From positions 38,932 to 102,931 of the forward strand of contig JBAZLL010000002.1 of the NCBI GenBank assembly GCA_041650255.1: 64,000 nt of DNA. The letters run 5' to 3'. Below the pieces are notes generated by a model. It did no database searches and was not told the DNA's origin. It was given only the letters and a program-made list of their open reading frames with translations. The position numbers and the translations under genes were made by a program. This DNA comes from Candidatus Micrarchaeia archaeon. Lineage in GTDB: Archaea; Micrarchaeota; Micrarchaeia; Anstonellales; Anstonellaceae. Position 1 is the stretch's first letter; the number at the start of each line of letters is the position of its first letter. Shown here one piece after another: positions 11,201 through 48,165 of this stretch.

Positions 11201-11584
11201 CTAAATTTCAATTTCCACTTCGCTTCCTTCTTCCAATCCGTATTTTTTCTTCAAATAATCTGCGGAAATAATTTGCAAAATGTTTCTTGGATGCACATTG
11301 TTTTTTGGAAAAACAACTGCGCATTTGCTCTCTTTTATTTTTACTGGATATACATCAACATTCCAAAACCTGATTTGCTCGTCTTCAAACCCGTTTATTA
11401 TTATCGCCGGTCGTTTTTTCATCTTCTCAATTTTTTCAATATCTTTTTCAGCTATGTTGATATTTAGTGTTCCTTCAAAAGGAATATAACCCAGTTTTTT
11501 CTCAAACTGTTTTTTGTATTGTGAAATGGACATGAAATATCTTCCCGTACCCATTCCTTTCACAACTGTCCCGGAAATTTTCAT
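11201..11584 (-). CDS. ribK: CTP-dependent riboflavin kinase paralogue (divergent)
   Basis: GTVVKGMGTGRYF, PFEGTLN, HPRNILQII..LKKKYGL; conserved Glu appears as Gln. Confidence 0.8.
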   Translation of the reverse strand: MKISGTVVKGMGTGRYFMSISQYKKQFEKKLGYIPFEGTLNINIAEKDIEKIEKMKKRPAIIINGFEDEQIRFWNVDVYPVKIKESKCAVVFPKNNVHPRNILQIISADYLKKKYGLEEGSEVEIEI

Positions 11585-11674
11585 AAAAAAGATAATCATG
11601 TTTGCATTTTAACCTTTTGCAAACCGTGCATCCGATTACTTGCAACGCGCTTTTTGCCAAAAACTTTTTTAAAT

Positions 11675-12094
11675 TTATAATAATGGCAAAATTTCAACCT
11701 CAATTTGTGCCCCGTCTTTAAGCCCGAATTTCTTGCGCATATTCTCCGCGCACACAAACTCAAGCACTTCCGGCGGGTGATGGTTCAAAAACGGGAATAT
11801 AATCACTCCCTGCTCTCCCAATATTTTTGCCTTATGGCACTTAATCTGAAAATATTTTTTGTTCCCGACGTCAAATCCGTCTACAACAAGTCCGTCGCCC
11901 ATTCTCAATTCCAACGCCAGTTTTTCATATTCGGGTAAAACTCTCACATTCAGCGTTCCTGCAAAAGGTGCATGCCCAAGCAATTTTTCAAATTCCTGTG
12001 CATATTTCTCAAGCGATAAAAAGAACTGCCCCTCGCCCCTGCCTGATACCACTTTCCCTATTATTTTAGACATGAAATTCACTGCCATTTGCAA
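11675..12094 (-). CDS. ribK: CTP-dependent riboflavin kinase (archaeal)
   Basis: GKVVSGRGEGQFF, PFAGTLN, HPPEVLEFV..NMRKKFGLKDG; true start may be 12073. Confidence 0.9.
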   Translation of the reverse strand: MQMAVNFMSKIIGKVVSGRGEGQFFLSLEKYAQEFEKLLGHAPFAGTLNVRVLPEYEKLALELRMGDGLVVDGFDVGNKKYFQIKCHKAKILGEQGVIIFPFLNHHPPEVLEFVCAENMRKKFGLKDGAQIEVEILPLL

Positions 12095-12103
12095 TAAAAT
12101 AAA

Positions 12104-12166
12104 TGGTCTCAGACGCTGTTAGCCTCATCATATATCAGAGGTTGTTCAACAAATCATCAACGACCA
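12104..12166 (-). ncRNA. Box C/D methylation-guide sRNA (candidate B)
   Basis: Minus strand: stem TGGTC, G, C box TTGATGA, TTTGTTGAACAACCT, D' CTGA, TAT, C' ATGATGA, GGCTAACAGCGT, D CTGA, stem GACCA; TTATAAAT box at 12193-12186. Confidence 0.88.
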
Positions 12167-12243
12167 AACTTATCTGTGTTTGGATATTTATAACTCCTGC
12201 CCCGAAATTGTTCTTCTGTATTTGGCAGTATCCATATCAAAAT

Positions 12244-39151: not shown

Positions 39152-39314
39152 GCCAACGTCGCATAACCTGGTAGTGCGTCAGTCTCGAAAGGCTTTTCTT
39201 TTCTCTCGCCAGAGAAAAGAAAACCCTGGAAAAGAAAAGAGAGGGATGAGCCTTCCTTTTTTCCGAGATAACTGATCCCTTACGGGATTGTAGGTTCAAA
39301 TCCTGCCGTTGGCG
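39152..39314 (+). tRNA. tRNA-Ser(CGA) with 80-nt intron (39190-39269) at 37/38
   Basis: Acceptor GCCAACG/CGTTGGC, anticodon arm TCAGT-CT-CGA-A...A-ACTGA, long variable arm, GGTTCAAATCC, G73; BHB with CTCG/CGAG helix and AAA/ATA bulges. Confidence 0.93.
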
Positions 39315-48039: not shown

Positions 48040-48165
48040 CGGACCCGGTGAGATTTGAACTCACGACCTTTGTCTTGCTCCGTTTTTAATTAACTTTTTT
48101 CTATTTTCTAAAAAGAAAAAAGTCATTAGGAGGACACTGCTCTATCCAAGCTGAGCTACGGGCCC
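48040..48165 (-). tRNA. tRNA-Arg(CCT) with 51-nt intron (48076-48126) at 37/38
   Basis: GGGCCCG/CGGGTCC acceptor, GTGTC-CT-CCT-A...A-GACAA, GAGTTCAAATCTC; BHB with CTCC/GGAG helix. Confidence 0.93.

Follow-up and report, generated by a model that had tools for sequence, protein, structure and literature searches.

A conserved archaeal box C/D sRNA with guides predicted to target U2552 and U2504 of its own 23S rRNA

Does an archaeal box C/D sRNA spend both of its guides on one ribosomal nucleotide? The question is raised by a 63 nt element at positions 12104 to 12166 (minus strand) of the 64,000 nt stretch of Candidatus Micrarchaeia DNA analysed here (the window), for which the original prediction had both guides aiming at U2552 in the A-loop of 23S rRNA, one in a U2551 and one in a C2551 version. 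We arrive at a different target for one of them. The reading that we favour, with a probability of about 0.85, is a trans-acting guide RNA whose L7Ae/Nop5/fibrillarin sRNP would bind two domain V strands of the organism's own 23S rRNA and methylate U2552 and U2504. Two guides spent on one nucleotide would have been odd; that oddity dissolves once the D guide is assigned to U2504 instead of U2552, and what is left is a well-supported pair of targets for a DPANN guide found across the class, U2552 together with a second site, U2504, in the catalytic loop.

Architecture, setting and distribution of the sRNA

Read 5′ to 3′, the element has the order UGGUC-GU-UGAUGA-UUUGUUGAACAACCU-CUGA-UAUA-UGAUGA-GGCUAACAGCGU-CUGA-GACCA, and covariance model R1, built from 17 homologues (alignment A1), matches it with 78.5 bits (E = 1.1e-17). 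In particular, the two halves of the terminal stem (UGGUC, 12162 to 12166, and GACCA, 12104 to 12108) form five base pairs, a GU linker joins the 5′ half to box C (UGAUGA, 12154 to 12159; columns T9 to A14, invariant in alignment A1), and boxes C and D (CUGA, 12109 to 12112, likewise invariant there) flanked by this stem make up a C/D K-turn. The D′ guide (UUUGUUGAACAACCU, 15 nt, 12139 to 12153) is followed by box D′ (CUGA, 12135 to 12138), which most homologues keep, and, after 4 nt (UAUA), by box C′ (UGAUGA, 12125 to 12130); the resulting CUGA-UAUA-UGAUGA is a K-loop that is kept in relatives, some of which have a hairpin in place of the short D′-C′ loop. The D guide (GGCUAACAGCGU, 12 nt, 12113 to 12124) completes the element. 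One deviation from the textbook form RUGAUGA is that the base 5′ of box C is a U and not a purine; another departure is the length of the D′ spacer, which is 15 nt here versus the canonical 12 nt, 14 to 17 nt in the organism's own genus, where a variable insertion of 2 to 5 nt adjoins box C, and 12 nt in most other relatives. The boxes and the 5 bp stem thus bear out the original prediction of a box C/D sRNA at this locus, and the guide complements that it gave are the ones read here: AGGU[U]GUUCAACAAA for D′ and ACGC[U]GUUAGCC for D, with the N+5 nucleotide in brackets.

The sRNA gene sits in a 150 bp gap between two minus-strand ORFs, one for a CTP-dependent riboflavin kinase and the other for a pilin-like protein that has a class III signal peptide. 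A TATA-like box (TTATAAATA, 12185 to 12193, minus strand), whose centre lies about 23 nt 5′ of the terminal stem, is a putative archaeal promoter, and a T-rich tract (TTTATTTTATT, 12093 to 12103, minus strand), directly 3′ of the sRNA and just before the ribK-like ORF, is a putative terminator. Directly downstream, on the same strand, two paralogues of CTP-dependent riboflavin kinase (PF01982) follow in tandem (11201 to 12094), the first of which begins about 10 nt beyond the 3′ end of the sRNA; the sRNA and this ORF may share one transcript. A search for RNA-seq runs that hold the sRNA sequence returned none, the matching runs being landfill and groundwater DNA metagenomes only; we infer transcription, RNP assembly and both methylations from the sequence.

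At Rfam's gathering thresholds, no sRNA family matches the locus. Relaxed thresholds give 29 weak matches, all to C/D-box families, on the minus strand and end to end, and the top one (snoPyro_CD) scores 24.7 bits against a cut-off of 45, so the sRNA belongs to the class and not to any curated family. By BLAST, 38 of 61 relatives have a homologue that shares these boxes, and the covariance model finds the sRNA in 207 of the 301 genomes of a phylum sample; 33 of the more distant copies were read together with the matching 23S segments. The position of the terminal stem is kept in most relatives with different letters, box D reads CCGA, CGGA or CAGA in more distant homologues, and the D′ core GAACAACC is kept in most homologues of alignment A1. 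Overall, the 63 nt element is a genuine, conserved and unannotated box C/D sRNA, an ordinary archaeal guide of a known class.

The genome is that of a small DPANN archaeon (1.05 Mb in 22 contigs, 89% complete) and encodes all three proteins of the sRNP: fibrillarin (291 bits), a Nop5 domain protein on contig C12 (192.9 bits) and an L7Ae homologue (43% identity, E = 6e-27 in a tblastn search with an M. jannaschii L7Ae sequence). The ORF upstream of fibrillarin, considered as a Nop5 candidate, has no Pfam match, and Nop5 lies elsewhere, on C12. The 23S gene (C10:2372-5501, minus strand) and the 16S gene (C10 9471-11000, plus strand) are each present once; they are divergently oriented, with about 4 kb between them, and therefore do not form one operon. 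About half of the 44 tRNA genes predicted in the whole genome have introns of 21 to 140 nt (in the window, those at 39152 to 39314 and 48040 to 48165), and ARAGORN's intron-containing tRNA-Stop(tta) and tRNA-Pyl(cta) calls are probably mis-set anticodons.

Targets of the D′ and D guides

The A-loop of this organism is GGGUUGUUCAUCC, with U2551 and A2557 where bacteria have C and G, and because of these letters the D′ guide fits it better than the original prediction could know. The ten 3′ nucleotides of the guide pair contiguously with 23S positions 2793 to 2802 (GGGUUGUUCA) through one G.U and nine Watson-Crick pairs, which places N+5, as an A-U pair, on LSU U2797, the first U of UGUUC and the equivalent of E. 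coli U2552; the duplex thus has the 10 bp and the Watson-Crick N+5 expected of a target with a complementarity of at least 9-10 bp. By our own arithmetic, 4.66 kb of rRNA should contain about 0.02 sites that offer nine Watson-Crick pairs in a row when the register is fixed. When 13 distinct D′ guides are averaged, the A-loop stands clearly ahead of all other sites in LSU and SSU rRNA, with a mean of 10.23 (z = 5.2) against 8.31 for the next site. Most relatives have a 12 nt D′ spacer, NAUGAACAACCU, that forms 11 to 12 bp with the A-loop, and variants with a G at position 8 or 11 still fit through G.U pairs. The A-loop itself is GGGUUGUUCAUCC in all 49 of the 49 relatives' 23S sequences read from lineages that carry the D′ guide to the A-loop. 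A second match of the D′ guide, at LSU 1804 (CGACUGUUUAACAAA, 11 pairs), uses extra 5′ spacer letters and was rejected because these are unconserved even within the genus. The assignment of the D′ guide to the U2552 equivalent is therefore supported by its own pairing and by that of its relatives, and this half of the original prediction holds. Methylation of U2552 guided by sRNAs has been predicted in five archaea (PMC4644070).

The D guide fits the organism's own A-loop poorly. Its proposed partner is the strand at 23S positions 2745 to 2756 (UCGCUGUCGGCU), which corresponds to E. coli 2500-2511 and lies 48 nt upstream of U2552. The duplex has six Watson-Crick pairs, is interrupted at position 8 by an A.C mismatch and continues with a G.U pair, two Watson-Crick pairs and another G.U pair; it places N+5 on LSU U2749 (E. 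coli U2504) as a Watson-Crick A-U pair. In the organism's own rRNAs this site ranks marginally first: its mean score is 8.72, and the LSU sites that come after it score 8.33, 8.33 and 8.28. Moreover, when G.U pairs were allowed, shuffled guides reached the observed run length in the rRNAs in 313 of 2000 trials for D′ and in 1122 of 2000 for D. Complementarity within a single genome is not decisive when G.U pairs are free, and the case is therefore carried by comparative evidence.

Across lineages, the D guide changes with its proposed partner. In the organism's own order and several others, the 23S strand is UCGCUGUCGGCU, the 3′ part of the D guide is (A/G)ACAGCG, and the pairing has the position 8 mismatch seen here. 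In lineages f16, f17, f20 and f22 the strand reads UCGCUAUCGGCU (G2505A), and the guide reads GAUAGCG, with a C-to-U change at its position 6. In f13 and f14 the strand reads (C/U)CGAUAUGGGCU, with A2503, A2505 and G2507, and the guide is, for example, AGUCCAUAUCGG; two genomes of these lineages (G196 and G265) pair at 12 of 12 positions. Counted over 27 distinct guide and target combinations, position 4 is C-G in 20, A-U in 6 and unpaired in 1; position 6 is paired in every case (G-C in 14, A-U in 13, unpaired in 0); and position 8 is C-G in 13, G-C in 4, G.U in 2 and unpaired, as A.C, in 8. Paired cells make up 86.7% of the total, versus 28 to 44% when the partner is slid by 1 to 3 columns, and none of 500 shuffles matched the observed covariation score. 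The rRNA changes C2503 to A, G2505 to A and C2507 to G in relatives are thus each matched by changes in the D guide, and this covariation argues that the D guide binds 23S 2500-2511. Binding of the sRNA to both 23S strands is well supported by these comparisons; for this genome, the predicted methylation of U2504 is less certain than that of U2552 because of the A.C mismatch at position 8.

This covariation also bears on the proposal that both guides aim at U2552, whether as redundancy, as coverage of divergent rRNA copies or as a match to a host's rRNA. The proposal has a visible origin: GCUGUU and GCC occur both in the D guide's complement ACGCUGUUAGCC and in the canonical A-loop GGCUGUUCGCC, to which the guide could form 9 of 12 Watson-Crick pairs, the two guides are identical at 7 of 12 positions, and a guide to CGCUGUCGGC resembles a faulty guide to GGCUGUUCGCC because both rRNA strands contain GCUGU. 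It would, however, need a second 23S gene with an A-loop like GCUGUUAGCC, and the genome has a single 23S gene, whose A-loop is GGGUUGUUCAUCC. The same A-loop is found in the 49 relatives that have the guide pair, all with U2551 and A2557 and none with a C2551 copy to be covered, and the canonical form is absent from the organism's genome and order. Variation at positions 8 to 12 of the D guide never improves the fit to the canonical A-loop and always fits 2507-2511, and the guide covaries with 2503, 2505 and 2507. Even in the eight f13 and f14 genomes whose A-loops do have C2551, the D guides match 2500-2511 and not the A-loop. Since the D guide covaries with 2500-2511 of its own lineage, a foreign or host rRNA is unnecessary to explain it, and we regard a shared U2552 target as highly improbable: a better target than the A-loop was found for the D guide, in the same 23S rRNA.

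Just as improbable is a D guide whose main target is another RNA (a tRNA, 16S rRNA, a pre-rRNA spacer or an mRNA), with the 23S match being incidental. Such a reading could draw on the marginal first rank of the 23S site in the organism's own genome and on the frequency with which shuffled guides equal it, but it cannot account for the covariation with 2503, 2505 and 2507. When both guides were compared with all predicted tRNAs, with and without their introns, and with 16S rRNA, nothing scored better than the 23S sites, and a whole-genome scan for guide complements returned only the antisense of the sRNA gene itself and matches at or below the number expected by chance in 2.1 Mb.

A more substantial alternative, unlikely in our judgement, is that the D guide is here an arm for binding only, which would anchor the sRNP or chaperone the 2500-2511 strand without methylating U2504. 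The broken duplex in this genome (six Watson-Crick pairs, a mismatch and four pairs, two of them G.U) may bind weakly, and conserved N+5 mismatches have been described in Pyrobaculum (PMC6009581). In four f13 genomes (G135, G136, G141 and G272; loci L097-L103, L141 and L142), the D guide forms 10 to 11 of 12 pairs and has a U.U exactly at N+5, which would imply binding without methylation in those genomes; that so many pairs are kept despite the U.U argues that binding itself is under selection. Against this alternative as an account of the present sRNA, N+5 is a Watson-Crick A-U pair here and in 25 of the 27 combinations, and in many lineages a G at position 8 makes the duplex a continuous 11 bp. 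Further, a published relaxed rule for dual guides allows one mismatch when a strong partner site is no more than 100 nt away and the combined score is at least 32 (PMC6009581); the D and D′ sites lie within that distance, have one mismatch and together score 35 by our own count.

Protein enzymes, assembly and the peptidyl-transferase letters

The original prediction called for a search of the genome for rlmE, and no FtsJ/RlmE-family match was found in it, whereas all 14 control genomes gave one; with the genome 89% complete, this absence is not proof. Weak FtsJ-like matches over the full length, at 24 to 36 bits, do occur in some relatives of the same order. In the phylum sample, strong FtsJ-domain matches (E < 1e-10; loci L151-L154) are almost confined to f13 and f14, plus f28, and most of the ORFs concerned are 350 to 430 aa long and match only the first 100 or so model positions. 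The f13 and f14 lineages also differ in their D′ guide. In eight of their genomes the A-loop was read as GGACUGCUCGUCC (seven genomes) or GGGCUGUACGCC (G166), and the D′ guide AAGAGUAACU misfits it in all eight; the guide, in the form (C/A)AAGAGUAACU(N), instead matches 23S AAGUUACUCU(G/A)G at E. coli ~2434-2445, with N+5 near U2438 (loci L120, L124, L125, L128, L130 and L133, some 45 nt to the 5′ side of the 23S query). Within the sRNA family, the D arm is the constant half and the older of the two. Overall, these distributions suggest that guide RNA and protein enzyme may be alternatives for making Um2552, with the f13 and f14 proteins as candidate RlmE enzymes; the weak FtsJ-like matches in the organism's own order keep the pattern from being a clean one. 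In lineages that have no clear RlmE, Um2552 is very probably made by the RNA-guided enzyme.

The predicted course of events begins with L7Ae, which would bind the sRNA at the C/D K-turn and the C′/D′ K-loop, followed by Nop5 and fibrillarin. The sRNP would then bind nascent 23S rRNA through both guides during ribosome assembly. By pairing with the A-loop (helix 92), the D′ guide would put one fibrillarin on the U2552 equivalent (LSU U2797) and yield Um2552, and pairing of the D guide with the 2500-2511 strand (central loop and helix 90) would put a second fibrillarin on U2504 (LSU U2749). While bound, the sRNA would clamp helix 92 and the 2500-2511 strand, which lie next to each other in the peptidyl-transferase centre. 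In Pyrobaculum, about 45% of the sRNAs have two guides to sites less than 100 nt apart, which has been read as an aid to rRNA folding (PMC6009581).

The strand bound by the D guide has unusual letters. In the organism's own order, the central loop of the peptidyl-transferase centre (LSU 2741-2756) reads ACAUCGCUGUCGGCU, with C2499A and A2503C; f16, f17, f20 and f22 add G2505A, and f13 and f14 keep A2503 and have G2505A and C2507G (loci L024-L053 and L104-L133). Since the D guide follows each 23S change, these variants are real and not assembly errors, and the guide serves as a second witness that odd letters at the normally invariant positions 2503, 2505 and 2507 are in use. Our literature search for natural A2503 or G2505 variation in DPANN archaea returned nothing relevant. 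These non-canonical letters make the archaea interesting to ribosome specialists and, together with the 23S-embedded sRNA copies described next, may be of greater interest than the sRNA itself.

In three genomes (G207, G170 and G318), the sRNA gene lies within the 23S gene on the same strand (L148 5533-5596, L149 5550-5613 and L150 5111-5173), in an insert of about 100 nt just 5′ of CGACUGUUUAACAAAAACAC (the H63/H64 junction) that is enclosed by a long helix. The embedded sRNA may be an intron-borne or expansion-borne guide that acts on its own host rRNA: the pre-rRNA would carry the guide within itself, and clamping or methylation would take place in cis. A precedent for action in cis is the tRNA-Trp intron guide, which acts on its own tRNA. 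A speculative extension, which we think doubtful, is that the sRNA of this class does more than guide modification: it would be indispensable as a clamp during the assembly of a peptidyl-transferase centre with drifted core letters (A2503C, G2505A, C2507G), acting in cis from within the 23S in these three genomes. Separately, in five contigs (G018:C7, G046:C80, G054:C11, G053:C36 and G041:C46), inserts of about 0.7 to 1 kb interrupt the match to 23S domain V after GGGUUCAGUACGUCG; they probably represent rRNA introns near E. coli ~2590-2600.

Comparison with known systems

The product predicted here, 2′-O-methyl-U2552 in the A-loop, is also that of RlmE/FtsJ in bacteria, Mrm2 in mitochondria and Spb1 in yeast, which are protein-only methyltransferases that need no guide, and of yeast snR52, a C/D guide for the same site. 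RlmE/FtsJ, Mrm2 and Spb1 thus differ from the present system in being stand-alone enzymes, and snR52 resembles it in being a guide RNA.

Among archaeal guides, the closest parallel in design is Sulfolobus acidocaldarius sR7, a dual guide likewise predicted to target A-loop U2552 (alignment U2826) and the 2500-2511 strand. Its upstream target is alignment G2783, or E. coli G2509, about 45 nt upstream (PMC4644070; Dennis et al. 2015, Additional file 1), versus U2504 here. The roles of its guides are swapped, with the D guide taking U2552 and the D′ guide the upstream strand, and the two sRNAs have no sequence homology beyond the boxes. The D′ half has its own counterparts in Nanoarchaeum equitans sR10 and Methanopyrus kandleri sR17, whose D′ guides (AGUGAACACCCU and AGCGAACAACCG, respectively, directly before CUGA) are complementary to the A-loop and closely resemble NAUGAACAACCU of the present family; the listed D′ target of N. 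equitans sR10 is U2826, that is, U2552 (PMC4644070). These two sRNAs differ in sending their second guide elsewhere, in the case of N. equitans sR10 to alignment U2880, near E. coli 2606. In turn, the D half is paralleled by Ignicoccus hospitalis sR204, whose D′ guide has the predicted target alignment U2778, or E. coli U2504 (PMC4644070), the same nucleotide as that of the present D guide; there, however, the partner guide is directed to G2744 and not to the A-loop, and the rRNA strand is the canonical CGAUGUCGGC.
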